Below are positions 1,660-32,154 of a DNA stretch of 56,247 nucleotides, one piece after another. Positions within the stretch are counted from its first letter, which is position 1, and every line of letters begins with the position of its first letter. A program made the translations under genes and the position numbers. The notes under the pieces are model-generated. The model did not search any database and was not told the DNA's origin. It was given only the letters and a program-made list of their open reading frames with translations. This stretch comes from a virus (Duplodnaviria; Caudoviricetes), in IMG/VR virus record IMGVR_UViG_3300049427_000022, positions 1-56,247 of that record, one strand, 5' to 3'.

Positions 1660-1903
1660 GGCTGCAACTATGATATATAAAACCATCGTTCCGAAAGGGG
1701 GGTACTTCTATACAAAAAGTAAAAGCCGGGTAAGTGTACTAAGAAAGTACCCCCCCGGCAAATTACAGCGTTCTTATATTAAAAGTTCAAAAGAGTAGAA
1801 CAAAGAAGTAATACTATAAGTAATAGATACTAATAATAACTATATATATATATAACTATTATTATTTATTATTTATATATTTATATTATATATTAGTAGT
1901 CTT
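1660..1903 (+). repeat. Origin-like element A; inverted homolog of 31918-32154
   Basis: 11-bp IR GGGGGGTACTT(1697-1707)/AAGTACCCCCC(1745-55), then AATAAC(TA)7ACTATTATTATTTATTATTTATATATTTATAT (1835-1886). Confidence 0.85.
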
Positions 1904-1919
1904 TTTACGCTGGAAGTCT

Positions 1920-2276
1920 TTACAGCCAGGTTTGCAGCTTTTCGAAATCCTTACCAGTCGCTTTTACATATAAACGCTGGCCGTCTTCGAAAGATATTAC
2001 CGCTGTACTAGCGTCTTTCTTACGGCCCCCAATTGCCGCGCCTGCAATCAGGCCTAAGCCCCCTGTAAGCACTCCGCCAATGATTGCCCCTGCTGCGGCT
2101 TTTCCCGCGCTTCGGGATGCGGCTTCCTGCCAGTCTAGCCCGGCGACTGTTAGCGTCGAAGAAGTGAACAATCCCGTTTTAAATTTAAGCGTACCTGGAT
2201 TGTTCCCCTTGTCTATGTATACGTCTATCCCCTTCACATGCTTACAGCCCGTTACGATTTTTAATCTAAGTGACAT
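1920..2276 (-). CDS. Glycine-zipper membrane-associated protein
   Basis: Start refined to MSLRLK after GGAAGGGG RBS; GKAAAGAIIGGVLTGGLGLIAGAAIGGRKK motif. Confidence 0.7.
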   Translation of the reverse strand: MSLRLKIVTGCKHVKGIDVYIDKGNNPGTLKFKTGLFTSSTLTVAGLDWQEAASRSAGKAAAGAIIGGVLTGGLGLIAGAAIGGRKKDASTAVISFEDGQRLYVKATGKDFEKLQTWL

Positions 2277-2307
2277 ACGTACCCAGCCCCTTCCTATTAT
2301 TTCCTTT

Positions 2308-2338
2308 ATTCTACATCGAATGTTCTCCCTAGACAACA
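2308..2338 (-). promoter_or_regulatory. Promoter with degenerate repressor operator
   Basis: TTGTCT-17-TAGAAT; TGTTCTCCCTAGACAACA at 2321-2338. Confidence 0.45.
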
Positions 2339-2347
2339 AAAAACGAC

Positions 2348-2369
2348 AAAAGGCCCGCTATGGGGCCTT
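2348..2369 (-). terminator. Probable terminator
   Basis: AAGGCCC/GGGCCTT stem with short U tract on the minus strand. Confidence 0.45.
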
Positions 2370-2372
2370 CTA

Positions 2373-2657
2373 CTAAGTATATATGCGTATAAAGTTGTCT
2401 TCGTCTGCAATGGCTGTGTTATCCCATTTTCGGGAAGCTAGCAGCTTCGCCTGGGCGATGTCGCCAGCCCTTACGGCCTTCTGTATTTCTCCTATACGGT
2501 AATGGCGCTGCTTGTCGTGAATGGATACCAGCGCCAGCTGCGAAAGAATGACCAGCTGGCCGTCTGTCATGTCTGCGGTAAAAAGGCCCTTCGTGTAATT
2601 CTCTACCGCCATCTTTATGTACTTGTCTATAAATTGCTGCGTCGCTCTTTTATTCAT
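2373..2657 (-). CDS. Hypothetical protein
   Basis: 94-aa ORF with GGGAGAG RBS. Confidence 0.65.
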   Translation of the reverse strand: MNKRATQQFIDKYIKMAVENYTKGLFTADMTDGQLVILSQLALVSIHDKQRHYRIGEIQKAVRAGDIAQAKLLASRKWDNTAIADEDNFIRIYT

Positions 2658-2693
2658 TTGTCGCCACTCTCCCTATTCTTTACAGATATTATG

Positions 2694-3002
2694 TCATTTC
2701 GGTGCTACAGGAACAATAAGCCATTTACCGGGTACAATGCGGTACGCCGGGTTCGTGTCCAGCACTTCGTAAGCTTCCGGGTCAAGCCCCTGGTCTATCA
2801 AGTCTGCGGGGCGTTTTACGAAAGTGCCGTCGTTCAGCGGGTTACGTGCTTTCTGCGCCAGCTGTAGGCTTCCGCTAAAAGCTTTCGGCTTTATCATTTT
2901 CCCGCAGTCCGAAGCCCATACTACAGCATGGCTGTAAGTCCTATCAGTCGTTCGCGTTACCTCTATCCCGTTAACTACTGCTGAACAAATCGTTTTTGCC
3001 AT
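2694..3002 (-). CDS. Hypothetical protein
   Basis: Start refined to MAKTICS after GAGGG RBS. Confidence 0.65.
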   Translation of the reverse strand: MAKTICSAVVNGIEVTRTTDRTYSHAVVWASDCGKMIKPKAFSGSLQLAQKARNPLNDGTFVKRPADLIDQGLDPEAYEVLDTNPAYRIVPGKWLIVPVAPK

Positions 3003-3025
3003 ATTGTCGCCCTCATTTCGTAAGT

Positions 3026-3092
3026 TGTTATCTATAGGCAACATTATATATAAATAACAATTAAAAGTAAAGACATCTTTATAACTTTACTT
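3026..3092 (-). promoter_or_regulatory. Promoter carrying both a repressor operator and a TAAAG-N4-CTTTA array
   Basis: TTTACT(3066-71)-17-TATAAT(3043-48); operator TGTTATCTATAGGCAACA 3026-3043; array 3068-3089. Confidence 0.7.
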
Positions 3093-3247
3093 ATTCAATA
3101 AGCAAAGACTTATAAATTAGAGAGTCGCCCCGAATTATCTAAAATTTCCATGGGTACTATATGCATTTAAATATTCACACTTTAGCCACATGAATGTTAT
3201 CCCAAAATTAGAAGGATTACCCGAAAATGTCGAATGCGATAACGTAC

Positions 3248-3291
3248 AAAAAGCCTACGCTGTAAGGTTTTTCAGCGTAGGCTTTATTTTT
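3248..3291. terminator. Strong hairpin / bidirectional terminator
   Basis: 13-bp perfect stem AAAGCCTACGCTG/CAGCGTAGGCTTT. Confidence 0.65.
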
Positions 3292-3426
3292 GTTGGATAC
3301 AATTGTCTTCATTTGTCGTTTAGTGTCGATATATTATGATAGCTTCGTATCAAATTTACATTTATTATAGAAAAAAAGAACTCTACGCTAGCGTAGAATC
3401 GCGGTCGGAGTAAACCGTAAAACGGT

Positions 3427-3663
3427 TTACTTTACTGCCTTCTCACCAAACAACAAAAAGCCATTTTCGTATAAAGCACGGGGGTCGCAGCCTAAAACAT
3501 TGGATACAATGAATATGCTTCTTAAAGACATAGCACGTTCATTAGTAGCCCAAAAGGATATTTGCCGAAAATCAAAACCCGTTTCTTCGGCTAACTTCTG
3601 CTGGTTCCAACCTTTGGCGGCTAATTGGTTATTGAGAAGGCAGTGTCCGACTTCACCAGTCAT
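3427..3663 (-). CDS. XRE-family HTH protein
   Basis: WNQQKLAEETGFDFRQISFWATNERAMSL HTH pattern; GGAGG RBS. Confidence 0.8.
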   Translation of the reverse strand: MTGEVGHCLLNNQLAAKGWNQQKLAEETGFDFRQISFWATNERAMSLRSIFIVSNVLGCDPRALYENGFLLFGEKAVK

Positions 3664-3803
3664 AACGGCCCTCCGAATGATACATTTTTCAACTTATCTA
3701 TCATAAGGTATTTTCGCTTTACAGGAAAGGAGTGGAAAATAATACAATTGATTATTGTATGTGTTAGAAGTATTTAACTTACATCATAAGAGGGGTACTA
3801 CAC

Positions 3804-4028
3804 ATGTGGATAACGGATAATGAGGACTTAACTGAATTGATTGCTTCCGCAAAAAATAGACTAAAGATATTACGCAGGCAGCAAGAAGAAGATTTAGAGG
3901 AATTGGCAGCAGCTAATAAAACCGTTAAAAATGCACAAGAAGCGCTGCTACATAATTTACAAAAATCGGCTATGGATGAAATAAACGCGCTACAAGCAGC
4001 CGTCGACGCTGCGCTATTTAACGCTTAA
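3804..4028 (+). CDS. Hypothetical helical protein
   Basis: GAGGGG RBS, 74 aa, followed by a terminator. Confidence 0.65.
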   Translation: MWITDNEDLTELIASAKNRLKILRRQQEEDLEELAAANKTVKNAQEALLHNLQKSAMDEINALQAAVDAALFNA

Positions 4029-4033
4029 AATAC

Positions 4034-4064
4034 ACCCGGACAGATTTATCTGTCCGGGTCTTTT
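4034..4064 (+). terminator. Intrinsic terminator
   Basis: 12-bp stem ACCCGGACAGAT/ATCTGTCCGGGT followed by CTTTT. Confidence 0.75.
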
Positions 4065-4076
4065 AATATAACAAAT

Positions 4077-4105
4077 AAAAAAGCCCCCAGCCGTTAGGCT
4101 AGGGG
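4077..4105 (-). terminator. Terminator of the lysis operon
   Basis: CCCCTAGCC-TAAC-GGCTGGGGG then T6 on the minus strand. Confidence 0.7.
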
Positions 4106-4157
4106 AAAAGTCGAAGGAAAAAACTTCCCAGCTTTGGGGCTACGCCCGCCGCCAGGA

Positions 4158-4367
4158 TTACTTCGTATTCGTTTCGTGTCCGAAAGTGCTGTAAATCCCG
4201 CCGCCTAATAGTGCGTAGGTAATAAGGTCTACGTACAGCTGGTAAGTTCCCAGGTCGGGCGCTTGTCCGTATTTCGCAAGTACCTGATAAATCACCGAAG
4301 CTATAGCCGCCAGGAATAGCGGGTTTGTAATTCTCTTTTTAAATGCTGCTTTCTGTTTCTTTGTCAT
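4158..4367 (-). CDS. Holin
   Basis: Two hydrophobic helices, basic N-terminus, next to the endolysin. Confidence 0.75.
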   Translation of the reverse strand: MTKKQKAAFKKRITNPLFLAAIASVIYQVLAKYGQAPDLGTYQLYVDLITYALLGGGIYSTFGHETNTK

Positions 4368-5125
4368 TTGATACCAGCCGCCTTTCGCGCTTCTTCCGCT
4401 AATGTATGTTGCCTGTCACGAAGGGCCAGCTGCTTCTTCGCTTCTGCTGCGTTTCCTACCTTCTTCGCTGCTAGGTATGCTTCGTTATGTTTGCCCCATG
4501 CAGGGCCTAGAAACCCGTCGATAATGTCCTGCGCGAAGGGCTTAAAGCGTTTCTGCGATTCTTTTAATGCCATTTCGTCGTCCTCCCCTATTCGTGTGTA
4601 CAGTTCCTGCCAGGGGAATTTCGGCCCAGGGCAGTAAGGTTTTCTTACCGGGTCAATTTGAAAGTGACCGACGACGGTATAGCTGTTGAGAGGAAAGCGC
4701 TCGGATTCGCCCCATATACGGGCTACTTCGTCAGTTATGTACTTATGCAGCCACACACTTGCCGCCAGCTGCGCTTCGGTTAGCTGGCCGTCGGTTCCCT
4801 CATGTTCGATTCCAATTAGGAATTTATTGGGGTTAACAAATTCTTTACGACATTTATCTTTTACAATTTGGGCCTTAACTTTTGACAGGGTTACAGCAGT
4901 AATCCCTTGCGTCCATGCCATGCGACGAATATCTACGTATTGGTCGATTTCGCCCGACTTGCTTATGCCGAAGTGCGCGCTGCTTACTTCGTTCCCTGCG
5001 CTGGTAAACCATTGCCGCATACTGTACATAGTGCCACCGCTTATATGGTCACAGATACCGATAGGTATATGACCTTCCCGGCTGCTGTTGTTCGTGTGTG
5101 CGTTACCTCGCTGTACAATTTGCAT
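4364..5125 (-). CDS. Endolysin, N-acetylmuramoyl-L-alanine amidase (Amidase_2)
   Basis: CDH, SAHF, AWTQG, IGIEHEG, GH, K.YCPG motifs. Confidence 0.9.
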   Translation of the reverse strand: MQIVQRGNAHTNNSSREGHIPIGICDHISGGTMYSMRQWFTSAGNEVSSAHFGISKSGEIDQYVDIRRMAWTQGITAVTLSKVKAQIVKDKCRKEFVNPNKFLIGIEHEGTDGQLTEAQLAASVWLHKYITDEVARIWGESERFPLNSYTVVGHFQIDPVRKPYCPGPKFPWQELYTRIGEDDEMALKESQKRFKPFAQDIIDGFLGPAWGKHNEAYLAAKKVGNAAEAKKQLALRDRQHTLAEEARKAAGIK

Positions 5126-5508
5126 TAAGGCGTACCTCCTTTCGCGGCTAGGTAGCCGATTAGTGCAGCTACGGTTATGGTTACAATCTTTACTATTGTT
5201 GTTTGCCAGTTGGTGGATTGCTGGCCGCTTTGCTTCGTCATATTTTGCAGCAGCTTCGCGCTATCGCTAGTCATTTGACCGAATATAGTTAAGATACGGT
5301 TTTCGAAGCCGTCCAAACGTGGGAAAATCGTTTCTACTAAGGTCTGCGTCTTTACCTGGTTACTTCCTAGCAGCTGTACGTCGCTTCGCAGCTGGTTATA
5401 GTTGTCTTCGATTCGCGCCAGGCGCTGCCGCGTTTCTATCGCTTCTGCGTTAAGCCTGGCGATATGTTCGCCGTATTCTTCCGGGCTGGGTATTCTTCCT
5501 GGTTCCAT
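5125..5508 (-). CDS. XhlA-like lysis-associated membrane protein
   Basis: Coiled coil plus C-terminal TM helix, upstream of the endolysin. Confidence 0.6.
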   Translation of the reverse strand: MEPGRIPSPEEYGEHIARLNAEAIETRQRLARIEDNYNQLRSDVQLLGSNQVKTQTLVETIFPRLDGFENRILTIFGQMTSDSAKLLQNMTKQSGQQSTNWQTTIVKIVTITVAALIGYLAAKGGTP

Positions 5509-5602
5509 CTGGCCGCTGCCCCCTTCTTGTCGTCAATAGAAAAAACCCCCAATTTTTGGGGGCATCGGTATTCTAACTGTGTAGGTTGAATTCTTGTTAT
5601 CT

Positions 5603-5869
5603 TTACGTCAGAGGTACAGGCACATACTGCGGGTCTTCCGGCCCTTTGAGTGCTAACGTATCGGCATGGTGCTGCGGGCTAATCCAGCCGTTCGCAAGGG
5701 CGCGGTCAATATCATTAATAAAGTAACTGCGGGCAGCGTAGTTCATAACCGGGCCGCCTGTTGGTTCTACATATTCGGGCCTAGTTGCTTCGATTTTCTC
5801 GAAACTGTTTGCCCCTGTAAGATAGACGTTAGTGGCGTAAGACTTTACAAGTAGATTATTTACAGCCAT
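5603..5869 (-). CDS. Small tail-associated protein
   Basis: Position after tail fibre and its chaperone. Confidence 0.55.
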   Translation of the reverse strand: MAVNNLLVKSYATNVYLTGANSFEKIEATRPEYVEPTGGPVMNYAARSYFINDIDRALANGWISPQHHADTLALKGPEDPQYVPVPLT

Positions 5870-6276
5870 TAAATTACCCCCGTTTCGATTAGTAGTTCTA
5901 GCATTTGTTGCAAGGTATCGCCTTGTTCCTTAACTACCCGATTACTAGCTGCCTGTTCGTCTCTAGCCGTTCGCAATTCAGCTTCCAGGCTTTCTATTTT
6001 TAGCTGCTCGTCTGTCTTCGGAGTTGGCTCGTTCTCCTTATCAATTTCCTCCTGTGTCTTTTCGCGTGGCAATACATTAACCAATTCACCTTCTACCACA
6101 TGAAGCGTAAAGTATGGGTGGAACTGTTTGATCTTAGCTGCCAAACCCGCGCCTTCTTCGGTGCCGCAATCAACAATATAATAAGGTTCCGTCGAGTCAG
6201 GATATGTCCCCTCATGTAGCCAGTAACCCGTTTCGTATGCCCCGCTTTCGAATATAAGAAGCTTGTCTTGATTCAT
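5869..6276 (-). CDS. Putative tail fibre assembly protein (XkdW-like position)
   Basis: Start refined to MNQDKL after GGAGGG RBS; C-terminal coiled coil. Confidence 0.55.
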   Translation of the reverse strand: MNQDKLLIFESGAYETGYWLHEGTYPDSTEPYYIVDCGTEEGAGLAAKIKQFHPYFTLHVVEGELVNVLPREKTQEEIDKENEPTPKTDEQLKIESLEAELRTARDEQAASNRVVKEQGDTLQQMLELLIETGVI

Positions 6277-6286
6277 TGTCACCCTC

Positions 6287-8824
6287 CTATCTAAACGCGA
6301 TGTACTGATATACAGCGCCGTTAAAATTCGTCCATGCGTGCTGGAATGTATCCCCGTTGTATCCAACGGAAATCTTATTTGTGCCTATGACTAATTGCGG
6401 CGTCCCAGCCATCGAGAGTATTGAAGGATAAGCCGTAGTTACTATGCCACCCCTATTGTATCCACCATCCCCGGAGGGGATGTAAACCATGCTAGGTGTG
6501 AAAGGTAGCGCAATATCCCTCGAAGCCGTTCCTGTGCCTACGTATGAACCAGAAACAACGGGGTTGTAGTCCGTTCTTAAAAACTCAGCCCAAGCCGTCC
6601 AAATGCCCGCTGCTTGCCTGCGCTCCCATACGCGATTAGTGTAAAAATCACGGGCGGTCTGCGTTACATATCCCCCAGCTTCTGAGTAATTCGTTACATC
6701 TAGGTAAAGCCAATCAGTAACCCCAGCAGGTCTGTTGACGGTTAGCACACCGTTATACTTACCGTTAGTGATTACTGTATCTAGGTTAGTCCCAGAAGCT
6801 AAGAAAATCGTTTCATTGCTAACCTGTCTCCAAGTACTCCAGACGTTGTTTATCTGTCTTCTCGTCCAGAATCTACGGTCATCAGTAGCGTAAGCGTTTT
6901 GTACCGTGTACTCGCCAGCTGGATACCTGGAAACCTCTATAAAGAAGTTCATTCCCGCTGCAGGAACGTTTGTGCCTTGAGGTACGTGATACCAACCGTC
7001 TGTTTTAAGAGTATCAGCGTTTACGCCTGTACCTTGATTGACCATCTCCCGACTTACTAGAGTCCAAGTAGTCCAAACGCCCACTGCTGTTTCCCTGCGT
7101 GTCCATACTCGATTATCGTTGAACGAATATGCAGTTTGTGCAGCGAAGTTCGCAGCGTTATTAATGCTTATTACGTCAATCAAAAATCCACCGCCCGCTA
7201 TCGGACCGTTTACTGCGTTAAATACGCGGTATCTACCTGTAGTTATTAGAGTGTTAATATTAGTGTTGTCAGTAAGAATGACCGTAGTATTCGCCCTGTT
7301 AGCTTTCGCCGCAATCTCTTGCAGCGCGCCTTCTACGTCAGTGGAGGTGATAATATTACCAGCGTCAGCGACAGTAATTATAGATGCGGCATGAGTTGCA
7401 GGATGAGTATAGTTGGTTGCACCTTCCGCTACCCCGGCGAGCTTTGTCTTTTCAGCAGTTGTAAAGTCCTCCATAGACAGCTGCTTACCCGCAACCTTAT
7501 CGACCTTATCCGTGTTTAACGCATCGAGCGATTTGTCCGGCGCTGTGTACCAGTTCGCTTTACCTGTAATGCCCTTAATCATATTTCCGAGTTGCCCCAG
7601 AAGCGACGTAAGGGCGTCGGCTGCACCCGCTGTCTGTACTGTCGTGTCAACGATTTGCCTTGTACCTATCGCTGTGTCGTTAACTGCGCCAGCTGCTAGG
7701 CCTGCCGAAGTAATTTTCGGGGCGTCGCCAGCTGCGCCTGTATGTTTATGACCAACTGCGGCGTCAAATTTCGTATTTACAGCTTCCAGGGAAATAGCCG
7801 GGGCTGTGTACCAAGCAGCCTTCCCGGTAATCTGCTTTGCCATATTCCCCAGCATGGAAAGGTTATTTGTAAGAGTTTGCGCCCCGGCCGCCGCTACTGT
7901 CGTATCTACTAAAGTACGGTTCCCTATTTTTGCGTCAGTCCCCCCGCCGTCCTTTAGCTGAATATGGCCGTTAGTAAATTGTAGACTTACATCGTCAGGC
8001 GTTCCCCCTACCTGGACTAACGTAAGCGCAGTCGTGCCTAGGGTAATTACTCCCGTTGTCGTTAGCTGCCAAGTCGTGAACTGGTTAACTGTACCTTCCA
8101 ATACTCGCGCAGACATCCCAGTCGTAACCTTTCCTGCTGTATCTGCGTCGACTGCTCGCGACCAGGCTGCGGCCTGTACGACGTATACGCCATTTTGTGC
8201 TGCTGTCGTCTGATTCTTTACAAGTACCCGGTCGCCTGCTATTACAGCAACGCCGTCAATCGTTTGCGGGGCTGATAGGTTAATATTCGCGGTAGTTGCA
8301 GCCCTTACCGCGTCTTTTGCGTCACGGATATACAAAAAGCCCCTGTTTACTATATCGCTGTCTACAGCTGGGTCTGCTACCTGGGCGCGCCCGGCTACGT
8401 CGCGCTTCATAAGTACGGAAGCCGTCGCTGCGTTTGTGGCTGCGGTAAGCGTACTGTTCGTCGCTTCTAATGTAGTCGCCGGGGATGTGTACCAGTTCGC
8501 CTTCCCGGTTATGCCTTTTATCATGTTCCCGATTTGTCCCAGTAGCGTAGTTGCTGTAGCAGCAGCCCCCGCCGTTTGCGCTGTGGAATCGGTTATCGTG
8601 CGATTTCCTATAATGGCGTCTGTTGCTGCGCCTGCTACCAGGCCAGCGGTTCCGATTTTTGGCCCTTTACCAGCCGCCCCGCTGTGGTCGTGGCCTGTAG
8701 TTTCGTGGAAAAGTCCGTCCAGCTTTACCCAATTATCCCGCAGCATGGTATCGGTATTAAATACGTTCTCGCCGTCCGTTGCTGTATCCGGGTAATAAAG
8801 CCCCAGCTTCGTAGTTGTTGCCAT
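6287..8824 (-). CDS. Tail fibre / receptor-binding protein
   Basis: Three GNM.K.ITGKA.WYT.P repeats, HxH motifs, VLVKNQT..QNGVY domain, three Q.A....R.W.R....W..W knob-like repeats. Confidence 0.9.
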   Translation of the reverse strand: MATTTKLGLYYPDTATDGENVFNTDTMLRDNWVKLDGLFHETTGHDHSGAAGKGPKIGTAGLVAGAATDAIIGNRTITDSTAQTAGAAATATTLLGQIGNMIKGITGKANWYTSPATTLEATNSTLTAATNAATASVLMKRDVAGRAQVADPAVDSDIVNRGFLYIRDAKDAVRAATTANINLSAPQTIDGVAVIAGDRVLVKNQTTAAQNGVYVVQAAAWSRAVDADTAGKVTTGMSARVLEGTVNQFTTWQLTTTGVITLGTTALTLVQVGGTPDDVSLQFTNGHIQLKDGGGTDAKIGNRTLVDTTVAAAGAQTLTNNLSMLGNMAKQITGKAAWYTAPAISLEAVNTKFDAAVGHKHTGAAGDAPKITSAGLAAGAVNDTAIGTRQIVDTTVQTAGAADALTSLLGQLGNMIKGITGKANWYTAPDKSLDALNTDKVDKVAGKQLSMEDFTTAEKTKLAGVAEGATNYTHPATHAASIITVADAGNIITSTDVEGALQEIAAKANRANTTVILTDNTNINTLITTGRYRVFNAVNGPIAGGGFLIDVISINNAANFAAQTAYSFNDNRVWTRRETAVGVWTTWTLVSREMVNQGTGVNADTLKTDGWYHVPQGTNVPAAGMNFFIEVSRYPAGEYTVQNAYATDDRRFWTRRQINNVWSTWRQVSNETIFLASGTNLDTVITNGKYNGVLTVNRPAGVTDWLYLDVTNYSEAGGYVTQTARDFYTNRVWERRQAAGIWTAWAEFLRTDYNPVVSGSYVGTGTASRDIALPFTPSMVYIPSGDGGYNRGGIVTTAYPSILSMAGTPQLVIGTNKISVGYNGDTFQHAWTNFNGAVYQYIAFR

Positions 8825-8841
8825 TTATCCAGGCTCCCTTC

Positions 8842-9396
8842 TTATAAACTTTCTCCGAATGGTGCTAAGTTTTTAAGTTTCAGCAGATTTAGGTCTTTTA
8901 TTTTCATGAGGTTTATTTCCCGAACTTTTACGTACCTATATTGGAAGACGTGGCCCAGGTGTGCATGGATAATATTTTCTACCGCGTCGTCAACGTCGGC
9001 GATTTTATCCGGAACGCCAAGGGGGCCACCGAATTTAATATTTACCATACTGCCTACCAGGTCTATACTTACGTCTACCTGACCGTTAACGAAAGATTCA
9101 CAGACGGTCTTCACCAGGGACGCCGAAAAGTTACCAGGGCTTCGCCAACGGGAAAGTACCCGCCCCCGCCTGGTTTCGTAACTGTCGGTAGTAAGGGTCG
9201 GGATATGCAGCTGGTCTTCGTAAAACTTTAAGCCCCATGTCGCTGTCTTAATTCGCAGTTGCGCTTTAAGATCGGCGTTTTTGTCGTCTTCGGTATCATA
9301 TTCGCTGCCCTGGGCCGCCTGGATTTCGGCGTATACCGCGCTAGTTTCGTAGTATTCTGGGGCCTGCGATAGCATACGGTCTACGCGCTGGGTCAT
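8842..9396 (-). CDS. Baseplate protein, XkdU/YmfQ-like
   Basis: TATWGL..YE and IIHAHL motifs; follows baseplate J. Confidence 0.8.
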   Translation of the reverse strand: MTQRVDRMLSQAPEYYETSAVYAEIQAAQGSEYDTEDDKNADLKAQLRIKTATWGLKFYEDQLHIPTLTTDSYETRRGRVLSRWRSPGNFSASLVKTVCESFVNGQVDVSIDLVGSMVNIKFGGPLGVPDKIADVDDAVENIIHAHLGHVFQYRYVKVREINLMKIKDLNLLKLKNLAPFGESL

Positions 9397-10532
9397 AGGC
9401 CAGTCACCGTACCCAGCGTCGGTGCTTGTGACTGTGTTATCGTAAGGTCTGCCGTACCGCCGTTAATGGTTAAGGTCGAAAAGCTTTTAAGCCCGACCGT
9501 AAAGGCCAGCAGCCCATAAATTTTGTTATAGATTACAGGAAGTGGCGTCTTCGTTGACGGGTCTACTTCGAATACCAGTTCTTTAAGGTACGCCTTAACC
9601 GACGATTGGAAGGCAGCTTTTACCGTAGCTGGAATAGCGCCAGCGGCGTACTGCGTCCCGGTTACTGTAATGTTTACGGCCAGGTTATCCGCCGCTGCTA
9701 CTGTACAGGCGTTCCCCAGCGGTACTTTACCGTCGCCCAAGCCAGTAGCGCCAGGGTCTAGGTACACCTGGGTATCGGTTACTACCTGGGGCGTAGCTGG
9801 CGTTAAATCCAGCCCGGCCAGCAGTACCTTCGACGTATTAACGCCAGCCCAGCGTGGAATAACTTTCGCCTTACCGACGCCTGCGACTTCCTGCGCCCAT
9901 CTTTGAAGGTCGTACTTATTACCCCCGGTGTCTGGGTGCGTCGCTTTAAAGTCGTACCGTTCCCAGGCTTCTTCGTCTGTTTCTGGATCGCGCGCTAGAA
10001 TGGTCGATCCCTGGTCTGCGATAATCCGTACGCCTGGAATAGAAGGCTGTAAAACGAATTGACTGCCTGCCGCCAGGTTCCCAATAGTTCCTGCCGTTTG
10101 ACATGTAATTTTAAGGATAAGCGCGGTACTGGTCGCCCAGTTTACCCCAGCGTCAGCGGTGAATTTAAGCGGTTGGCCCTGGTCGTCCAATACAACCGCG
10201 TATAGCTGTTGCCCTTGTGGGATATTTACGCCCGCGTCAGCTGTGATAAGGAGTGCGCGCTTATTAGGCGTAGCCCCAATTCGAGTTAGCCCGACGTCGT
10301 ATAGGCAGTCGTCCAGGTCGCTACCTTCCGCATAAAAGGCAAAACGGCTGGCTAGAATCGTGTCCTGGTTTATTTGCAGCTGCTTAATTTCTGCCGGGCT
10401 AGGGGCTATTGCGTCGAACATAAAGTCGCCAGGTTCGGCCCGCCAGCCGTCAGTCTCTACTTTGGCTATCATACGGTCGCGTATGGTCATTTCGGTTTCT
10501 TCGAAAACGGGCTGGAATTTATTACGTGCCAT
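9393..10532 (-). CDS. Baseplate J / XkdT-like protein
   Basis: C..AG..GN, ETDE, GGNKYD..WA.EV.GV motifs. Confidence 0.9.
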   Translation of the reverse strand: MARNKFQPVFEETEMTIRDRMIAKVETDGWRAEPGDFMFDAIAPSPAEIKQLQINQDTILASRFAFYAEGSDLDDCLYDVGLTRIGATPNKRALLITADAGVNIPQGQQLYAVVLDDQGQPLKFTADAGVNWATSTALILKITCQTAGTIGNLAAGSQFVLQPSIPGVRIIADQGSTILARDPETDEEAWERYDFKATHPDTGGNKYDLQRWAQEVAGVGKAKVIPRWAGVNTSKVLLAGLDLTPATPQVVTDTQVYLDPGATGLGDGKVPLGNACTVAAADNLAVNITVTGTQYAAGAIPATVKAAFQSSVKAYLKELVFEVDPSTKTPLPVIYNKIYGLLAFTVGLKSFSTLTINGGTADLTITQSQAPTLGTVTGL

Positions 10533-10551
10533 TAAGCTTATCCCCCTTCCT

Positions 10552-10968
10552 TTATGCGGTGAATGTTAAAGTATCCGTACCGTAAACATGGTCGAAAGTT
10601 GCCGTTATTACGGCTTCGTCCATGCCATGGCGCTGTATCGTTATGTCGCGTACGTCGTGTAACCAGGGGTCGTATATAACGGCTTCTCTTACGGCACGTT
10701 CCATTTCCGAAAGCTTCGCAGCAGTCGGAAGATCCGATATTCGAATATTGTCTACGTCGCTGCCGTAGGTATGGCCCCGGCTTCCTTCTACTTCCGGGTC
10801 GGCTGCGTAAATTAAAAAAAGCCCGCGAATAGTCTGCTGGGCTTTTAATACAATTTGTTCTACGGCTTCCGTGCCTGTGACCGTTCTTACCTTCCCGGCT
10901 GCGTCAAATGCGAATTCCCCAGCCTGCCAATCGTATACCGGGGTTTTTCGGTTGTCTTTACTTGCCAT
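10552..10968 (-). CDS. Baseplate wedge protein, XkdS-like
   Basis: YGSD, E.ER.VREA..YDPW, VYG motifs; synteny. Confidence 0.8.
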   Translation of the reverse strand: MASKDNRKTPVYDWQAGEFAFDAAGKVRTVTGTEAVEQIVLKAQQTIRGLFLIYAADPEVEGSRGHTYGSDVDNIRISDLPTAAKLSEMERAVREAVIYDPWLHDVRDITIQRHGMDEAVITATFDHVYGTDTLTFTA

Positions 10969-10981
10969 GAATACCGCCCCC

Positions 10982-11434: not shown

Positions 11435-11447
11435 CCTAACCGCCCCC

Positions 11448-16796: not shown

Positions 16797-16859
16797 GTTT
16801 GTTTACCATCCTTTCGACTGTTGGAAAAATTTAAGGGGCTGGCATTTCGCCGCCCCTAT

Positions 16860-16886
16860 TATCTTTATATCTTTACTTCTTTACTA
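16860..16886 (+). repeat. Three 8-bp-phased NNTCTTTA units
   Basis: TATCTTTA TATCTTTA CTTCTTTA. Confidence 0.7.
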
Positions 16887-17306
16887 CTAGATCGTTTGTA
16901 CGTAGTTAAAAGCGTCGAAGGTGAAGTCCAGCGATACTTCTACGTTACTGTCTACTGCGAAGTGCATAAGCGGCGCGCTATCGAAGCTTACGCCGCGAAG
17001 TAGTACCGCTTCCTGGCCCCGGCTTGTCGGGTCTGCCAGGACGCCCCGGAATACGAATTTAGCCGTAGGGTTATCGGCTATTTTCTTTTGTAGGCGACTG
17101 TCGATTTTAAGGAAAGTCATGCTACCGCTACCAGTACCGCCCATTACTTTATGGGTGCTTAAAAACTGGCCGGGCAGCTGAATTTCTTCTTTAGCGAATT
17201 CGACATTAGCTTCGAATTCTTGTACGGTTTGGTTTTCCTGGCCGTTTTCGTCGTACAGGCGGCCGTACTTACCGTTAATAATTTCGTTACCGTCAATGTT
17301 AGCCAT
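16887..17306 (-). CDS. Tail tube protein, XkdM-like
   Basis: INGKYG, GSGSMTF, L.DP, VSFD, FTF motifs. Confidence 0.9.
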   Translation of the reverse strand: MANIDGNEIINGKYGRLYDENGQENQTVQEFEANVEFAKEEIQLPGQFLSTHKVMGGTGSGSMTFLKIDSRLQKKIADNPTAKFVFRGVLADPTSRGQEAVLLRGVSFDSAPLMHFAVDSNVEVSLDFTFDAFNYVQTI

Positions 17307-21896: not shown

Positions 21897-21913
21897 GTAT
21901 GCTTAAAAAAATT

Positions 21914-22330: not shown

Positions 22331-22354
22331 TGTGTGATTCCTCCAATTACTAAT

Positions 22355-22408
22355 TTAAGTTGTCTTTACTTCTTTACTTCTTTACTTCTTTACTTCTTTA
22401 CTTCTTAC
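22355..22408 (+). repeat. Tandem 8-bp array
   Basis: TTAAG-T-TGTCTTTA-(CTTCTTTA)x4-CTTCTTA. Confidence 0.9.
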
Positions 22409-23187: not shown

Positions 23188-23335
23188 AACTGTATTCCTT
23201 TCAGCGCAGTAATAAAGGGCTGCCCCTATATGCGCCCTGTTTTTTCGATACAGGTAAACGAGTATTTGCCCCTTTCGGGTATATAGAAAAGGCCCGCAGC
23301 TGTGAAAGCCTGGGGCCAACCTATCCTCTATTAAC

Positions 23336-23614
23336 TTAGATAACGGCCCCAGGGGGCGCGCTACCAGGTTCGGGTACTTCCCCGGTAAATTCCGCTTCGG
23401 TTAGTACCCGGTCGATAATCAGTTTAGCCGATAAGGCGCTGCGTAAGTGCTTCGTTTCCGTCTGTTGCCCTACCGGGCCAACCAATTCGCCTTCCAGGTT
23501 AGCCACTTCGTTTAATACCATGCGTATAGCCGTTCCGTTCCCGGTTAGGCTGCCATCCTGCCAGGCTATCTTTACTTCTTGGCTTCCTACTTTGCCAGCT
23601 GCTTCGAATCTCAT
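23336..23614 (-). CDS. Hypothetical protein; candidate immunity protein for the MuF toxin
   Basis: Start overlaps the MuF stop codon. Confidence 0.55.
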   Translation of the reverse strand: MRFEAAGKVGSQEVKIAWQDGSLTGNGTAIRMVLNEVANLEGELVGPVGQQTETKHLRSALSAKLIIDRVLTEAEFTGEVPEPGSAPPGAVI

Positions 23615-25668: not shown

Positions 25669-25685
25669 AGCTTACGCTCCCTTCG

Positions 25686-27323: not shown

Positions 27324-27353
27324 TTCATGCCCCCCCTTCCGTCATTTTTGAAT

Positions 27354-29048
27354 TTACCCGCCTATATCATCCCGATTGTAGGCCGAAGCTTTGCGGCCTT
27401 CCGGGTCTTTTATCATGTACGCGGCCCGTATCAGCAGAAAAAGCCCAATAGCTACGTCGTCATGTGGTACATGACCTTCGCGCCTGGGCTTTGCTGTATG
27501 AGGTACGTGGAAATTTATCTTTTGTTCTTTTTTCGCTACCCTTACCAGGTTTTCAAGCTGCCAGCGGGCTTCGTCATACAGGTCTGCTTGCTGCGGATTA
27601 TTGTCCGGGCGTCTCGGCATACGGAAAAGACCGCCTTTGACGTAAGAGTAAGCCAGGTAACCCAGCTTACTTTTATTTTCGTCGCCTGCGGCCTTGAATT
27701 TGTATGCTTCTATTTCCATTTCGGGCAGCTGTTCGATTAGCCAGTATATCAGCGCTTCGCCCAGCCCGGTAGCGTCGCCGCTGCCGCCTATACAACTCCA
27801 ATGTTTAAGAATTGTCTTTATCTGTAACCGCTGCTGCGTATGCCCTTTACCTACCCATTGATACCAGGCTACCGGGACTATAACGCCGTCCGGGAATAGT
27901 TCGCCTATGGTAAGTATCGTTGCATCGCGTTTATGGTTCCCGGCTTCTACTTCGTCGGCCAGTTCTGTAGGCTGTTCTTCCTGCCCGGCTACGTCTATCG
28001 AAAATATATAGCTGCTGCTGGGTTTCGGCCCTTGCCTGGTTTCGTACTGGCTGGTAAATATCCGGGTTATTTCTTCGTCATTAAAGTACTTACCTATCGT
28101 GTCTACGAAGGTAAGGCGGTACTGCGTCTGTACGGCGATATGATTTTCTCCCAGGCGCGCTACCAGGTTTTCGTAGAATTCCTTATAGTTCGCGTTCCCA
28201 GCTGCTATTACCCGGTCGGCGTCTATCTTAAAAACCAGCTTCGGCCTGTAGCCTAACTTCTTTTCCAGCCGGGTTTCCATATCGTAGGCCTGCTGCATCC
28301 CCTGATAAATAAAGCTTCCTTTCGTCCATGCGACGCCATAAAGTACGGTCGTCGCATTGTTGAAGCTTCCCATAGGCTGCGCGTCCCGGTTCCATTTGGC
28401 TTCGTCTATGTCCTGGGCTTCGTCACCTTCCAGCAACGTAAAGGCTGTCTGCGAAGCGACGTTAGCCGTAGGGTTGATAGAGAGGAACGCCCATTTATTC
28501 GAATCCCTGGGCTTGCCTATATGGAATTTATAGCCGTCGCTTTTCGTAAATGTGTGCTTCGTTAATATACTTCCTGCCAGGCCGCCCGCGTCCGGGGCGT
28601 CTGCCCCTTCCAATCTATCCATAGAAGCCTGTACCTGGGGCTTATGAACAGGGGCAAATTTAACGCCGCTTATCCGTTCGCCATGGAACCAGCCGTATAA
28701 TAAAAGAAAATGCTGTACGAAGGCGCTAATTTCGTTCTTCCCAGCCTGGCGGCTAATCATGACTACGATAAACCAGCCAAGGCCCATTAAGGCAGAATAT
28801 ATAATAGCGTCGGCGACTTCCAGCTGGTAGTCGTAGGGGTCATTCTTACGAAGAAGTCGCCAGGCTGTCCGTAAGTTTTCCCTTAAAAAGAGTTCTTCCA
28901 GGCTGTTTATCGTATTGTAGGGCAGCGCTTCGCGGGCTTCCTTTACCGTCTTAGGTACGCTTACTACGGAAGGCGCGCCGCTTATCGGGTCTACTTCTTC
29001 CAGGTAATCGTATTCCATTAGCTTATAAGCGCTACTGCCGTCCATCAT
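27354..29048 (-). CDS. terL: Terminase large subunit
   Basis: SRQAGKNE Walker A, GDEAQD Walker B, IDVAG, DATGLG, HDD nuclease motifs. Confidence 0.92.
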   Translation of the reverse strand: MMDGSSAYKLMEYDYLEEVDPISGAPSVVSVPKTVKEAREALPYNTINSLEELFLRENLRTAWRLLRKNDPYDYQLEVADAIIYSALMGLGWFIVVMISRQAGKNEISAFVQHFLLLYGWFHGERISGVKFAPVHKPQVQASMDRLEGADAPDAGGLAGSILTKHTFTKSDGYKFHIGKPRDSNKWAFLSINPTANVASQTAFTLLEGDEAQDIDEAKWNRDAQPMGSFNNATTVLYGVAWTKGSFIYQGMQQAYDMETRLEKKLGYRPKLVFKIDADRVIAAGNANYKEFYENLVARLGENHIAVQTQYRLTFVDTIGKYFNDEEITRIFTSQYETRQGPKPSSSYIFSIDVAGQEEQPTELADEVEAGNHKRDATILTIGELFPDGVIVPVAWYQWVGKGHTQQRLQIKTILKHWSCIGGSGDATGLGEALIYWLIEQLPEMEIEAYKFKAAGDENKSKLGYLAYSYVKGGLFRMPRRPDNNPQQADLYDEARWQLENLVRVAKKEQKINFHVPHTAKPRREGHVPHDDVAIGLFLLIRAAYMIKDPEGRKASAYNRDDIGG

Positions 29049-29164
29049 GGCCGCAGCCCTGCTAGCATAATAATAGCTTCGGGCTTTAAGTGCTTATACT
29101 GCTGCGGGCTTACGCCTTGCGCTTTAAGAATTTCGATAGCCTGGGATACTGTACCCTGCGCCAT
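29045..29164 (-). CDS. 39-aa ORF translationally coupled to terL
   Basis: Hand translation MAQGTVSQAIEILKAQGVSPQQYKHLKPEAIIMLAGLRP*; GGAAGGGG RBS; ATGA overlap. Confidence 0.55.
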   Translation of the reverse strand: MAQGTVSQAIEILKAQGVSPQQYKHLKPEAIIMLAGLRP

Positions 29165-29209
29165 AATACCGCCCCTTCCTGGAATGTAAAAAGCCGCCTA
29201 GCGGCGGCC

Positions 29210-29710
29210 TTATATATGTGTCCATATTTTTCTATTAATGATATCGGATACCGTAGGCTGCGTTATGCCGTATCGTGCGCCTAAGTCCTTCATTCGTACT
29301 TTGCCTGGCACATATTCGGCCCGTATTGCCCGTACGTCGGCTTCCGTAAGCTTTGTCATGGCCTTCGTAGCTTTTGTCTGGCTTTCCAGCTTACGCGCTC
29401 GTTTTATGGCCGCCAGTTGTTCGGGGTCTATTTTTTCGCCCTCTATATGGCCCCAAGTAGCCCCGTTAACAATATTTTCCACACTAGAAGACGAAATACC
29501 GTATATTTTTCCCAGTTCCTGGGCATTTTCGCCCCCCCGGTACTTTTTTCGGATTTCTAAAACCTGTATATAAGATAGTTTTGAGTTCTTGTGTTTTTCC
29601 CCCCGTGGGGTACTGGCCTGGTGGCTTTTTTTATAAAATTCCATATATTCTTCAAGTGAAGCGAATTCCCCAGTAAGTCCAGCATGACGTTTAGGCGTCT
29701 GTTCTTTCAT
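29210..29710 (-). CDS. Protein with two tandem HTH modules of the type found C-terminal in HNH endonucleases
   Basis: KL....V..IR..Y.......L...YGI....V..I......W.HI twice; no HNH core. Confidence 0.75.
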   Translation of the reverse strand: MKEQTPKRHAGLTGEFASLEEYMEFYKKSHQASTPRGEKHKNSKLSYIQVLEIRKKYRGGENAQELGKIYGISSSSVENIVNGATWGHIEGEKIDPEQLAAIKRARKLESQTKATKAMTKLTEADVRAIRAEYVPGKVRMKDLGARYGITQPTVSDIINRKIWTHI

Positions 29711-30197
29711 AATCAGCGCCCCTTACGTCTTTCCATATCTTAAAGGCTAGAATATCGCTTATTGTCTTAATATTGACGCCGTATTCATTCGCCAAATGAA
29801 GCTTTTTAGCCCCTTCTGCGAATCTCTGGCGTATAGCTTGTACTCTTAACTTATCTAGCTTTGCATTCGGGTGACTTGCAGGGCAGGCGGCAGCTTCGGC
29901 TTTCTTGGCTGCCTTGTATTCTTCAACGCTGCCATATTCGCCCATAGGGATATGCTGCCAGGATTTCCCGGTAACAATGCCCGCTATAGTGGAATTGCCT
30001 ACACCGTATTCCTTTGCTAGGTGCTTCGTCCCGACTAAGCCAGGTAGATACTTCTTTCGAATCTCTATTACCTGGGCTTCGGTAAGTACTGCCGTTCTGC
30101 TTTTTTCGCCTTGCTTGGCTTCTGATTGCTTTTTACGTGTCTGCTCCCTATGGGCTTCTACGTATTCTTCCAGGCTTCCGAATTGGCTGGGGTTCAT
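29691..30197 (-). CDS. Paralogous double-HTH protein
   Basis: Same module twice; GSLEEY motif shared with the neighbour. Confidence 0.75.
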   Translation of the reverse strand: MNPSQFGSLEEYVEAHREQTRKKQSEAKQGEKSRTAVLTEAQVIEIRKKYLPGLVGTKHLAKEYGVGNSTIAGIVTGKSWQHIPMGEYGSVEEYKAAKKAEAAACPASHPNAKLDKLRVQAIRQRFAEGAKKLHLANEYGVNIKTISDILAFKIWKDVRGADYERTDA

Positions 30198-30214
30198 GTG
30201 TCAACCTCCCTAAA

Positions 30215-30262
30215 CGTTATCTATAGATATCATTATACAATAAATGTTCTCTGTAGTAAACG
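30215..30262 (-). promoter_or_regulatory. SigA promoter with two repressor operators
   Basis: TTTACT(30255-60)-17-TATAAT(30232-37); CGTTATCTATAGATATCA and TGTTCTCTGTAGTAAACG. Confidence 0.7.
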
Positions 30263-30322
30263 GTGTAGTTACGGTAAACCCAGCTACATACAGTAGCTTA
30301 TTCTAATGAACCTTATTTATAA

Positions 30323-31255
30323 TTATTTCCCAGCTGTACTATCGCTGTTTTCTAGCGATTCTACAGGGTTTTGGCGCGCTTGCGCTTCACCGCCCCAGGA
30401 AATACTTACTTTGCCTTTTGAAGCTGCGCGAAGTTCCGCATTAACCTGGCCCAGCAGATCGTCGCCTTTATCTGGGTTAAGTCGGGCATGTTTTTCTATT
30501 AAACGGCCCAGGGTATTTAAGGCTCTATCCAGCGTTCGGTCTTCCAGGCTTCCCGCGTGATAGAAGCTACGCGCGCCTTCGCCTTCTGAATACCATACCC
30601 TCGATTCTGCGTCCGCGTACTTTTCGGCTTCTTCGTGCGTCCGATTCGCTACCCATCTTTCGATAGCTTCAAGGCGCTTATCGTGGCACATAGCGTTAAG
30701 GCAGTATCCAGGTTTACCTTCCAGTTCACCCTTCACAAAAGTTCGCCCACAGTCAGGATTAAGGCATTTATATTTAACGTATTTTTCGGATAGCTTGCGG
30801 TTGTAGAAGCTTTCCCACTTCTTACGCCAACGTACCAGGTAAACGCGTATCTTCGCTTTAAGCATGTAGATTTCATGCTGCAAGCCCATAGATTCGGTTA
30901 CCAGTTCTTCTTCGTACGCGGCCTGTTCTGCGGGGCTTAACGCTTCGCTGTAAAAGCCATGCTTTCGCGGGTTGTTGGCTACAACTGCTTTTCCTTCTTC
31001 CGTTTTCGGCCCGGTGCTGCTACCCCCGCAAAACTTACAGCGTCCGTATCCTGGGTGCTGCGTCCCGGCCCCTGCGGTCGATTTACAAAAGCCTGGCCCT
31101 TTTTTCTTCTTGGCCCCGCATGTTAAGACTTCCCGGCCCCGGACAATATCTACCCGGTTCTTTTGGTCGGCCTTCGCGTTTAGCTGGCTTTTCTTCGCCA
31201 TATCGTAGGCAGGGTCGGCAGCGACGGCAGGCGTAATATTTTTTTCGTCGGCCAT
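30323..31255 (-). CDS. terS: Terminase small subunit (HGGxSTG-like) with Zn-ribbon insertion
   Basis: Start refined to MADEK; CGAK...C...RCKFCGGSSTGPKT.EGK...KHGFYS; position upstream of terL. Confidence 0.75.
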   Translation of the reverse strand: MADEKNITPAVAADPAYDMAKKSQLNAKADQKNRVDIVRGREVLTCGAKKKKGPGFCKSTAGAGTQHPGYGRCKFCGGSSTGPKTEEGKAVVANNPRKHGFYSEALSPAEQAAYEEELVTESMGLQHEIYMLKAKIRVYLVRWRKKWESFYNRKLSEKYVKYKCLNPDCGRTFVKGELEGKPGYCLNAMCHDKRLEAIERWVANRTHEEAEKYADAESRVWYSEGEGARSFYHAGSLEDRTLDRALNTLGRLIEKHARLNPDKGDDLLGQVNAELRAASKGKVSISWGGEAQARQNPVESLENSDSTAGK

Positions 31256-31277
31256 TATCGCGCCCCCTTTTTTTAGT

Positions 31278-31309
31278 AGTAAAGACAACTTTACTTCTTT
31301 ACTTCTTGA
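31278..31309. repeat. TAAAG-N4-CTTTA site with phased 8-bp units
   Basis: AGTAAAGA CAACTTTA CTTCTTTA CTTCTTGA. Confidence 0.8.
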
Positions 31310-31321
31310 AGTTTGTTCCGT

Positions 31322-31439
31322 AAAACGAAAAGGGCGCGCCTTGGAAAGGCCCGCCCCCGCTATTTTGCCTTCCTTATGTCCTAGGACATAAGTTAAGCAG
31401 CTTACCATAACTATACTTTAAAAATGCGTAAAATGTCAA
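31322..31439 (-). promoter_or_regulatory. Late promoter and leader with palindrome and attenuator-like terminator
   Basis: TTGACA-18-TATAGT; perfect 20-bp palindrome 31373-31392; GC hairpin plus T tract ~31322-31356. Confidence 0.55.
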
Positions 31440-31876
31440 GCTTCGACTTTTACCGACTTAATCTTAGCTAATAGCAAGCCGTGCGCCGCTTGCAGGCCTT
31501 CCAGCCTGGCCTTTTCTTCGGCTGCTTTCCCGTTTATTTCCCGGTATAAAAATTCTTGGCCCTGTTCCAGCCCCCGGATAAATACCGGGCGACGTACATT
31601 AAGGATACGCAGCGCTTCCTTCTGTAGGATCGGCCTTATATAGTGAAACCGAACGCAGTAGAACGAAAATGACAATTCCTTACGCAGCTGCCCCAGCGCC
31701 TGGTCTAACATAATCTTATTCAAGCGCCCGCCGCTTACGCCGTCGGTCTGCTTCGGGCCGCTGTTCACTATTTTTACCTGGCCGTCGTCGATTTGGTCGC
31801 CTGCTTCCAGGCTGCCGTAGTTTTCCAGCCAGCGTATTACATTCTTCTTCGAGACATACCCTTCAATATGCGCCAT
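31436..31876 (-). CDS. Putative late transcription regulator (ArpU/Q-like position)
   Basis: Last gene before the late promoter; C-terminal region-4-like helices. Confidence 0.55.
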   Translation of the reverse strand: MAHIEGYVSKKNVIRWLENYGSLEAGDQIDDGQVKIVNSGPKQTDGVSGGRLNKIMLDQALGQLRKELSFSFYCVRFHYIRPILQKEALRILNVRRPVFIRGLEQGQEFLYREINGKAAEEKARLEGLQAAHGLLLAKIKSVKVEA

Positions 31877-31917
31877 TCCCCAGCCCCCATAAATTGCCAG
31901 TTCCCCGGCAAAGAAAT

Positions 31918-32154
31918 AAAGACTATATAATATATAAATATATAAATAATAAATAATAATAGTTATATATATATAGTTATTTAATAGTTAGTAAGTATAG
32001 TAATACTTACTGCTCTTTTCTTTTAATATTTTGATATAAGACTGCTGTAAATCTTAGGGGGGGTCATTTCGCAGCCCGGCCTTCGTTTGCCGACTACTAC
32101 ACTAAGAGTACCCCCCCTAAGAAACGCGACATTTATATATCATTTTTCGCAGCC
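31918..32154 (-). repeat. Origin-like element B; inverted homolog of 1660-1903
   Basis: 13-bp IR TCTTAGGGGGGGT(32052-64)/ACCCCCCCTAAGA(32110-22); minus strand AATAAC(TA)6ACTATTATTATTTATTATTTATATATTTATAT. Confidence 0.85.

Follow-up and report, generated by a model that had tools for sequence, protein, structure and literature searches.

The window analysed here is a whole provirus record of 56,247 nucleotides (nt) from a virus of the Caudoviricetes (IMG/VR record IMGVR_UViG_3300049427_000022; completeness rated 99%), and it carries two intergenic copies of a single DNA element, A and B, at the borders of its late genes. All of the long genes lie on the minus strand, with the exception of an S24/HTH repressor (53788-54600, +) and a large serine recombinase, the integrase (54613-56247, +), which ends at the window's final base. 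The early genes, on the minus strand between ~53.7 kb and 32.2 kb, encode among others SbcC/SbcD-like proteins, a ResIII/DEAD-box helicase, an AEP primase-MCM helicase fusion (AEP-MCM, 41175-44255, -) and a family A DNA polymerase (PolA, 37469-40075, -). The late genes, also on the minus strand, extend from 31876 down to ~1920 and comprise a terS-like gene, an HNH gene, the large terminase, an SPP1-type portal and an endolysin (4364-5125). Element A (1660-1903, +) lies between the divergent gene167 (1069-1572, -) and the 3′ end of the last late-side gene, while element B (31918-32154, -), which reads in gene direction, lies between the last early gene (32157-32768) and gene146 (31436-31876, -). 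Each is made up of a platform, a linker and an AT tract, which points towards the late genes in A and towards gene146 in B. With 30.2 kb between them, the two copies enclose every packaging, morphogenesis and lysis gene of the phage.

A and B are collinear from GGCTGC (1660 in A, 32154 in B) through the end of the AT tract (1903 and 31918), and alignment, self-comparison, pattern search and covariance model all agree on the pair. Self-blastn aligns 1743-1904 with 32070-31918 over 162 columns (77.8%, E 1.9e-27) and finds no third copy in the 56-kb provirus; within this region lies an ungapped inverted repeat of 51 nt (1843-1893 and 31925-31975, 96%). The pattern ATATATAAA-N8-30-GGGGGGT-N25-55-ACCCCCC matches only A and B in the window, for an expectation of 0.00 over 100 shuffles, and a covariance model built from 18 family members finds two sites only in the record, at 101.8 and 93 bits. 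The initial annotation of this stretch, made from its letters alone, had described collinear copies at these positions, with AT cores differing by one TA unit and an internal G/C inverted repeat in each, bracketing the late region of a phage with AEP-MCM and PolA genes. This description is confirmed: the single TA unit is visible in the alignment, the inverted repeat of A is GGGGGGTACTT/AAGTACCCCCC and that of B a 13-pair stem, and Pfam recognizes MCM, DNA_primase_S and DNA_pol_A in the replication genes.

The anatomy of the element was drawn from the 18 family members and then from 57 copies, 56 of which were anchored for spacing. Its first module, the platform, is a two-fold-symmetric unit of ~110 bp which reads, in order, an A-rich stretch with ATATATAAA, 13-17 nt, G6-7TA, an A-rich spacer of 46-47 nt, TAC6-7, 16-19 nt, and TTATAT(ATT). 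In A, the outer left box ATATATAAA (1673-1681, +) reads on the opposite strand as a -10-like TATAT box facing gene167; the inverted arms G6TA...TAC7 (1697-1756, +) hold a 47-nt A-rich spacer (1703-1749); and the outer right box TTATATT (1774-1780, +), 17 nt past the C-run, faces the AT tract. In B, all on the minus strand, the left box ATATATAAA is at 32132-32140, the arms (32057-32117) are G7 (32111-32117) and C7 (32057-32063) around a 47-nt spacer, and the right box TTATATC (32033-32039) is again 17 nt past the C-run. Among the anchored copies, the left box stands 13-17 nt from the G-run in all 56, the last G is 46-47 nt from the first C in 45 (range 41-53), and the C-run is followed by the right box after 16-19 nt in 41. 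The half-sites are inverted, not direct. The sequence of the spacer varies by lineage, with an excess of A over T, on the same strand, in 17 of the 18 copies compared, and in some lineages the arms co-vary (GTGAGGGGTAC/GTACCCCTCAC, GAGGGGG/CCCCCTC, GGGTTATTAAACTT/AAGTTTAATAACCC); it is the geometry of the platform that is conserved, while its sequence is not. Since the covariance model scores each site on both strands (~90 bits forward, ~45 reverse), the platform is quasi-palindromic. A spacer of fixed length, equal to five helical turns, would fit a DNA-protein assembly better than the loop of an RNA.

Two lineages depart from the common form of the arms. Both copies of G044 (L281 and L282) have an extra short G6-N5-C6 hairpin directly after the G-run, a lineage-specific feature; in G027 the G-run is short, yet the arms are longer and form a perfect inverted repeat of 14 bp around a loop of 20 nt. 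The motif TTCCAGC/GCTGGAA near the elements was considered as a defining feature and set aside, as it is present in several copies, not all, and lies partly in the gene146 coding sequence.

The second module, on the C-run side only, consists of 100-150 bp of 90-93% A+T and ends in TAGTAGTCTTTTT. The tract of A (1837-1906, +) contains a pure A/T run at 1857-1895, and the 100 nt from 1806 to 1905 are 90% A+T; the conserved TAGTAGTCTTTTT at 1894-1906 (+) is followed by GCTGGAAG at 1909-1916. The tract of B (31918-31975, -) has its pure A/T run at 31924-31961, with 90% A+T over 31910-32009. In four of four genomes the two tracts are the two most AT-rich 100-nt intervals (90-93%; next best 74-82%), and the origin-like look that had first been attributed to the elements holds. 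DNA of this composition should melt easily.

How widespread is the pair? Two sites are found in the window, in the relatives G001, G002, G003, G004 and G006, in three Paenibacillus chromosomes (one of which, G009, matches the window with protein identities equal to those of G001 and is counted with it), in Bacillus phage vB_BboS-125 and in the Bacillus cereus prophage phBC6A51. A further 39 viral records encode an AEP-MCM relative, and at least one site is present in 26 of them and two sites in 17; if only the 22 records at least 90% complete are taken, 17 have two sites, three have one and two have none, counts in which many B. cereus-group records are closely related and do not stand for independent events. 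Two copies, rather than one or none, are the usual state in the near-complete records of these other MCM-encoding phages, and their single sites could be explained by provirus trimming. Altogether there are 27 two-copy records, with the copies 23.5-35.3 kb apart. The carriers are phages of Paenibacillus, of B. cereus-group bacteria and of alkaliphilic Bacillus which encode an MCM-type helicase. The three Paenibacillus chromosomes contain exactly two sites each, both within the prophage, a count that led us to reject a miniature transposable element or other dispersed repeat. When element A was searched by blastn against the phage collection, only the AT tract of vB_BboS-125 matched. The pattern has 117 matches in metagenomes; 34 AT-rich ones were run through the covariance model and eight passed, and the remaining 83 look unrelated by spacing and composition.

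The prophage phBC6A51 is particularly informative. It has in common with the window the SbcCD-like genes, the helicase, AEP-MCM (65% identical, annotated there as “MCM domain family protein”), PolA (54%) and gene146, but the terS, terL, portal and capsid genes of the window are all without a detectable counterpart there. It nonetheless has both copies of the element, 31.2 kb apart, which ties the element to the replication and regulation module; judged by gene content, the pair travels with the AEP-MCM gene and this module. Platform sequences of A copies are 80-84% alike across Paenibacillus genomes, against 64-73% for A and B in one genome. Because the platforms group by type, A with A, the duplication is old, and the pair is ancient and conserved.

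The positions of the two copies follow a rule. A B-type copy precedes the gene146 homologue, the first late gene, in every genome examined, whereas the A-type copy lies beyond the lysis end of the late block, adjoining gene167 or, in other lineages, an integrase. In 12 of the 13 two-copy records classed as proviruses by IMG/VR, one copy is at most ~3 kb from a record end. Orientation is less strict: 24 of the 27 pairs are inverted and three are direct (G002, G006, G028). The B copy is reversed in place in G002, G006 and the fragments L163 and L193, so that only 25-40 nt separate its platform from the start codon of gene146, with its AT tract turned to the early genes. The element thus tolerates either orientation relative to its neighbours and to transcription, and would work as double-stranded DNA; this argues against a leader RNA, a terminator, strand-specific twin origins, or inversion as the conserved function. 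In the initial annotation the pair had been interpreted by two models, strand-specific twin origins or inversion sites. The first needs opposite strands, and is weakened by the three direct pairs and by a platform that scores on both strands; the second, considered below, meets the same three direct pairs. What stands of that interpretation is a real pair, its occurrence in relatives and its resemblance to an origin; neither of the models is supported.

The genes on the outer and inner sides of the elements bear on their possible role. gene146, the first gene after B in every relative, encodes a small protein whose predicted model (mean pLDDT 74) resembles sigma region 4. Its top Foldseek matches are sigma region 4 domains (TM-score 0.67-0.82 by target, rmsd 1.3-2.4, ~60 columns, all with E > 0.1); there is no Foldseek match at E <= 0.001, and none in Pfam, NCBIfam or PDB sequences. 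The product is probably a late-transcription regulator, going by this model, and gene146 occupies what we take to be the slot of RinA/ArpU-type activators, just before terS. For gene167, on the outer side of A, no family match was found, and the ESM Atlas gave only unnamed viral clusters with scores < 0.9. A sigma-70-like promoter for gene167, TTTACT-18-TATAAT, is present at 1638-1609 on the minus strand, and no sigma-70-type promoter was found in B. The half-sites themselves have a promoter-like geometry, with the C-run at the -35 place and the TATAT box at the -10 place, and 41 of the 56 anchored copies keep a spacing of 16-19 nt between them. Where the B copy is flipped, a TTTTTC stretch and then a Shine-Dalgarno sequence come between the TATAT box and the gene146 start codon, all within 25-40 nt; the half-site, a candidate promoter, is there correctly placed to drive gene146. 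In four genomes the half-site motif does not occur outside the two elements.

Other repeats and signals are found nearby. Tandem octamer repeats, CTTTACTT on the plus strand and AAGTAAAG on the gene strand, occur at 22354-22406, 31271-31315 and 16853-16889, and also at 1620-1650. They occupy short intervals ahead of late genes, among them the one that separates gene146 from the terS-like gene, and in several relatives comparable GTAAAGA repeats adjoin A-type copies on their outer side; these octamers may be late promoters or binding sites of the gene146 protein. In phBC6A51 (L202, ~28800-28830; record ~59800-59830), the outer box of the A copy and a site-specific recombinase gene have a terminator-like hairpin between them, GACGAC...GTCGTC followed by a T-run when the plus strand of the record is read.

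What, then, might such a pair do? A and B are probably replication origins or switch-like promoters. Our tentative first choice, to which we give a little less than an even chance, is a promoter-coupled replication origin, built like oriF and oriG of T4 and present twice like oriL and oriR of SPP1. It is chosen because the geometry is conserved, the arms co-vary, the AT tracts are extreme, orientation is tolerated, the element is linked to replication genes, the half-sites look like promoters, and T4 and SPP1 offer precedents. From sequence we infer protein binding, promoter activity, unwinding and initiation at the two sites. Both would be copies of one ancient cis-acting element acting as double-stranded DNA, whose platform would serve as a two-fold-symmetric protein-assembly site. 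Its two inverted half-sites (TATAT box, 13-19 nt, G/C-run) would have their G/C runs held five helical turns apart by the A-tract-rich spacer. Each half-site would be an activator-dependent promoter combining an unusual box at the -35 place with a sigma-70-like -10, and the one on the tract side would fire into the AT tract or help to open it. The AEP-MCM primase-helicase and PolA would begin synthesis in the opened tract, and the phage would maintain two such sites at a distance of about half a genome, in the manner of oriL and oriR in SPP1.

A more daring proposal, and a fairly improbable one, is that the platform is the loading site of AEP-MCM itself: the inverted half-sites, five turns apart, would load two hexamers head to head beside the melting tract, and recombination of replicating genomes between the two origins, whose AT tracts are homogenised, would give two isomers with the whole late module in opposite orientations. 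In the core origins of SV40 and papillomaviruses, and in archaeal ORB pairs with their G-strings, symmetric initiator sites stand beside or around an AT-rich tract, in promoter regions. A and B are like them in having symmetric sites by an AT tract, suited to head-to-head loading, and G-rich strings are met in the archaeal sites as well. Unlike those systems, however, no Orc1/Cdc6 or large-T-antigen-like origin-binding domain was found here, and the 47-bp spacer and outer TATAT boxes have no counterpart there, so that the likeness is architectural only.

The closest precedent for the promoter-coupled origin is in T4. As described in PMC3016281, oriF and oriG are compact units in which a promoter, normal in its -10 but with an unusual upstream box for a phage factor, is directly followed by an A+T-rich unwinding tract, and several copies are present per genome, intergenic and away from the replication genes. 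A and B likewise have an A+T-rich, unwinding-type tract directly downstream of a promoter-like unit. A further likeness is that the phage encodes a ResIII/DEAD-box helicase whose homologue in vB_BboS-125 is annotated as UvsW helicase. The differences are nevertheless clear: the promoter-like unit, here a putative promoter, is doubled into a symmetric platform; A and B are homologous to each other, whereas oriF and oriG have little sequence in common; the tract is two to three times longer; and the helicase is an AEP-MCM fusion instead of T4 gp41 with gp59.

SPP1 provides the precedent for a pair. The claim first made for this window, that no described temperate phage has such a layout, overlooked its oriL and oriR, which are two homologous origins (PMC6316719) with an AT-rich unwinding element, one of them in a long intergenic region among late genes. 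Here too, two homologous copies are present in one Firmicute phage genome, with protein-binding-type repeats beside an AT-rich element. In SPP1, however, the repeats are direct and bind gp38, and oriL lies inside gene 38, while here the half-sites are inverted and both copies are intergenic. The helicase of SPP1 is of DnaB type, in contrast to AEP-MCM, and its copies are ~13 kb apart, as against 23-35 kb here, where no initiator was identified. Enzymatic work on BcMCM, the AEP-MCM fusion of phBC6A51, has used generic templates, and the accessible text of that work names no natural origin for it (PMC3273815). In the genome paper of vB_BboS-125, “origin of replication” and “inverted repeat” both have 0 occurrences. 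No description of the element was found in literature searches on vB_BboS-125, BcMCM, phBC6A51 and Elmenteitavirus or in the openly accessible text on the first two.

Several observations weigh against a promoter-coupled origin. The cumulative GC skew passes both elements without a bend and reverses only where gene orientation does, near 54 kb; neither copy adjoins the replication genes; no initiator protein for A or B was identified; and five of the 22 near-complete AEP-MCM records lack the pair. The top strand of the tract is slightly T-rich; its transcript would be U-rich and would form a weak R-loop. Finally, the half-site motif lies exactly where the promoters of gene146 and of gene167 (or the integrase) are expected, and gene146 has a sigma-region-4-like model; a purely transcriptional role would therefore explain much of the same data.

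That purely transcriptional role, doubtful on balance although it deserves to be taken seriously, makes the pair a boundary switch. The platform would consist of back-to-back activator-dependent promoters sharing the A-tract spacer as an upstream element, comparable with UP elements: B would turn on gene146 and hence the late operon, A would turn on gene167, or the integrase in other lineages, and the AT tract would be a bent or silencer-binding leader without a role in replication. The invariable place of B directly before gene146 speaks for such a switch, as do the succession of signals in the flipped clade and the lack of a sigma-70 promoter in B, while on the other side the outer half of A faces gene167 in the window and the AT-tract side of A faces an integrase-like frame in G023 and G043. 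The sigma region 4 domains at the top of the gene146 matches belong to the same picture, but their E-values all exceed 0.1. One half-site per copy, moreover, points into the 3′ end of a convergent gene, although every copy conserves both of its halves; the motif, absent from the rest of the four genomes searched, is hence no general late promoter; and a promoter needs no 100-150 bp of 90% A+T. In phBC6A51, the terminator-like hairpin, read by eye, would separate the outer box of A from the integrase gene.

It is improbable, though conceivable, that A and B have some other role as DNA-level borders, whether as a silencing or looping anchor for the late block in the lysogen, as a programmed fork barrier or break site that switches replication to concatemers, a role proposed for oriR of SPP1, or as a partition-type site. 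The presence of a copy at each border of the late block, irrespective of orientation, and a geometry phased in helical turns, would suit a role of this kind, and so would the SbcC/SbcD-like proteins and the ResIII/DEAD-box helicase with its UvsW-annotated homologue. In the SPP1 model, the fork is brought to a halt by initiator occupying oriR (PMC6316719). A candidate protein that would bind the element was not found here, however, and vB_BboS-125 keeps the pair without an annotated integrase or repressor, which makes a role in lysogeny only unlikely.

The second of the models first put forward, in which A and B are recombination sites selected to invert the late module or to convert theta into double rolling-circle replication, is highly improbable, even though sequence does pass between the copies, as converted patches and one recombinant junction contig indicate. 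Within a genome the AT tracts are nearly identical over ~130 nt in G003, ~95 nt in vB_BboS-125 and 51 nt in the window, and a B-type patch is found in three of 12 A copies of the B. cereus group. The junction (9403-10718) is in L087 (Ga0101941_1001918), an 11.5-kb metagenomic contig containing L018, where gene167 and an A-type platform are joined through the AT tract to gene146 and 10 kb of late genes. This is the junction expected after inversion of the late module, and L130, a B-side contig of the same metagenome, breaks at the AT tract. An assembler cannot, however, orient a segment between inverted repeats from the graph alone, and L087 is either an inverted isomer or a mis-join at the repeat. 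All the other flank-mapped assemblies, including three long Paenibacillus chromosomal contigs, have the standard arrangement; the tracts of G007 are only ~75% alike, and those of the direct-repeat genomes G002 and G006 are also less alike; and a direct pair, as in three of the 27, is unable to invert. No invertase gene adjoins either copy, the window's only recombinase is the large serine integrase, and no gene of vB_BboS-125 is annotated as a recombinase. The Mu G and P1 C segments and the 2-micron FRT sites resemble the pair in that inverted repeats bracket a late-gene block, and in the one contig with an inverted junction; they differ in that their repeats are 26-34 bp long instead of ~240 bp, that the block is here the whole 30-kb late module, that no invertase is adjacent and that orientation is not conserved. 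Exchange between the copies looks like a by-product of the repeat. Whichever function holds, the repeat explains why assemblies of these phages break or are mis-joined at A and B.

There is very little to be said for a structured RNA, be it a small RNA, a leader or a terminator, formed by a hairpin of the G-run and C-run. The stem is indeed conserved, its arms co-vary in some lineages and B folds better than shuffled sequences (z -3.2), but the top strand of A folds no better than shuffles (z -1.4), the loop keeps its 46-47 nt and not its sequence, the G/C runs hardly vary across lineages, co-varying arms are confined to a few of them, and the element tolerates either orientation relative to transcription. 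Rfam at its gathering thresholds gave 0 matches and ARAGORN 0 tRNA or tmRNA, and neither element has a T-run after the stem or a terminator-like site. A pac site recognized by the small terminase, as in SPP1 with pac before gene 1, has next to no probability: B precedes the terS-like gene by ~0.5 kb and the phage has an SPP1-like portal, but the phBC6A51 lineage, without detectable window-type terS, terL or portal, keeps both copies, and headful packaging has no use for another copy at the far end of the late block, so the element, kept where packaging genes differ, is not a pac site.

Some further features of the record concern its limits and its variable regions. The frame at 1-447 (-) encodes the N-terminal part of a DEAD-box helicase and continues beyond the window; as a 91%-identical copy flanks the related prophage G007 in a Paenibacillus chromosome, this is probably host DNA. 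A homologous helicase is on the integrase side instead in G008 and G009. The other record end coincides exactly with the integrase stop codon (56245-56247). Since the record opens inside the helicase gene and closes on this stop codon, the limits of the provirus were set by gene calls, and the attachment sites are outside the window. Between the PolA and AEP-MCM genes, 40076-41174 is a 1.1-kb gap of low GC (41%) with a GC skew of -0.24 and plus-strand frames at 40242-40655 and 40642-40878; the gap is 62 nt in G007 and occupied by a DUF6283 gene in G008, and is a variable insertion slot. Just past the endolysin, 3045-4363 (1.3 kb, 36% GC) has small frames only (3427-3663, -; 3804-4028, +; 4158-4367, -), some of them conserved among relatives. 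Two adjacent HNH/HTH-type endonuclease-like genes lie at 29210-30197, between the terS-like and large terminase genes, and their identity to relatives, 32-68%, is low compared with the flanking genes.

What the pair means for these phages depends on which function it has. If A and B are promoters, they would define the early-to-late switch of widespread and almost unstudied phages of Paenibacillus, the B. cereus group and alkaliphilic Bacillus. If they are origins, they would reveal the way in which a bacterial virus recruits an MCM-type helicase, and these phages would be a second Firmicute group with paired origins. If, beyond this, the platform loads AEP-MCM, bacterial viruses would have a symmetric origin in the archaeal and eukaryote style, the first origin known for the BcMCM family. 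In any case, the element family is a concrete, conserved candidate site for BcMCM, present in its own prophage phBC6A51.

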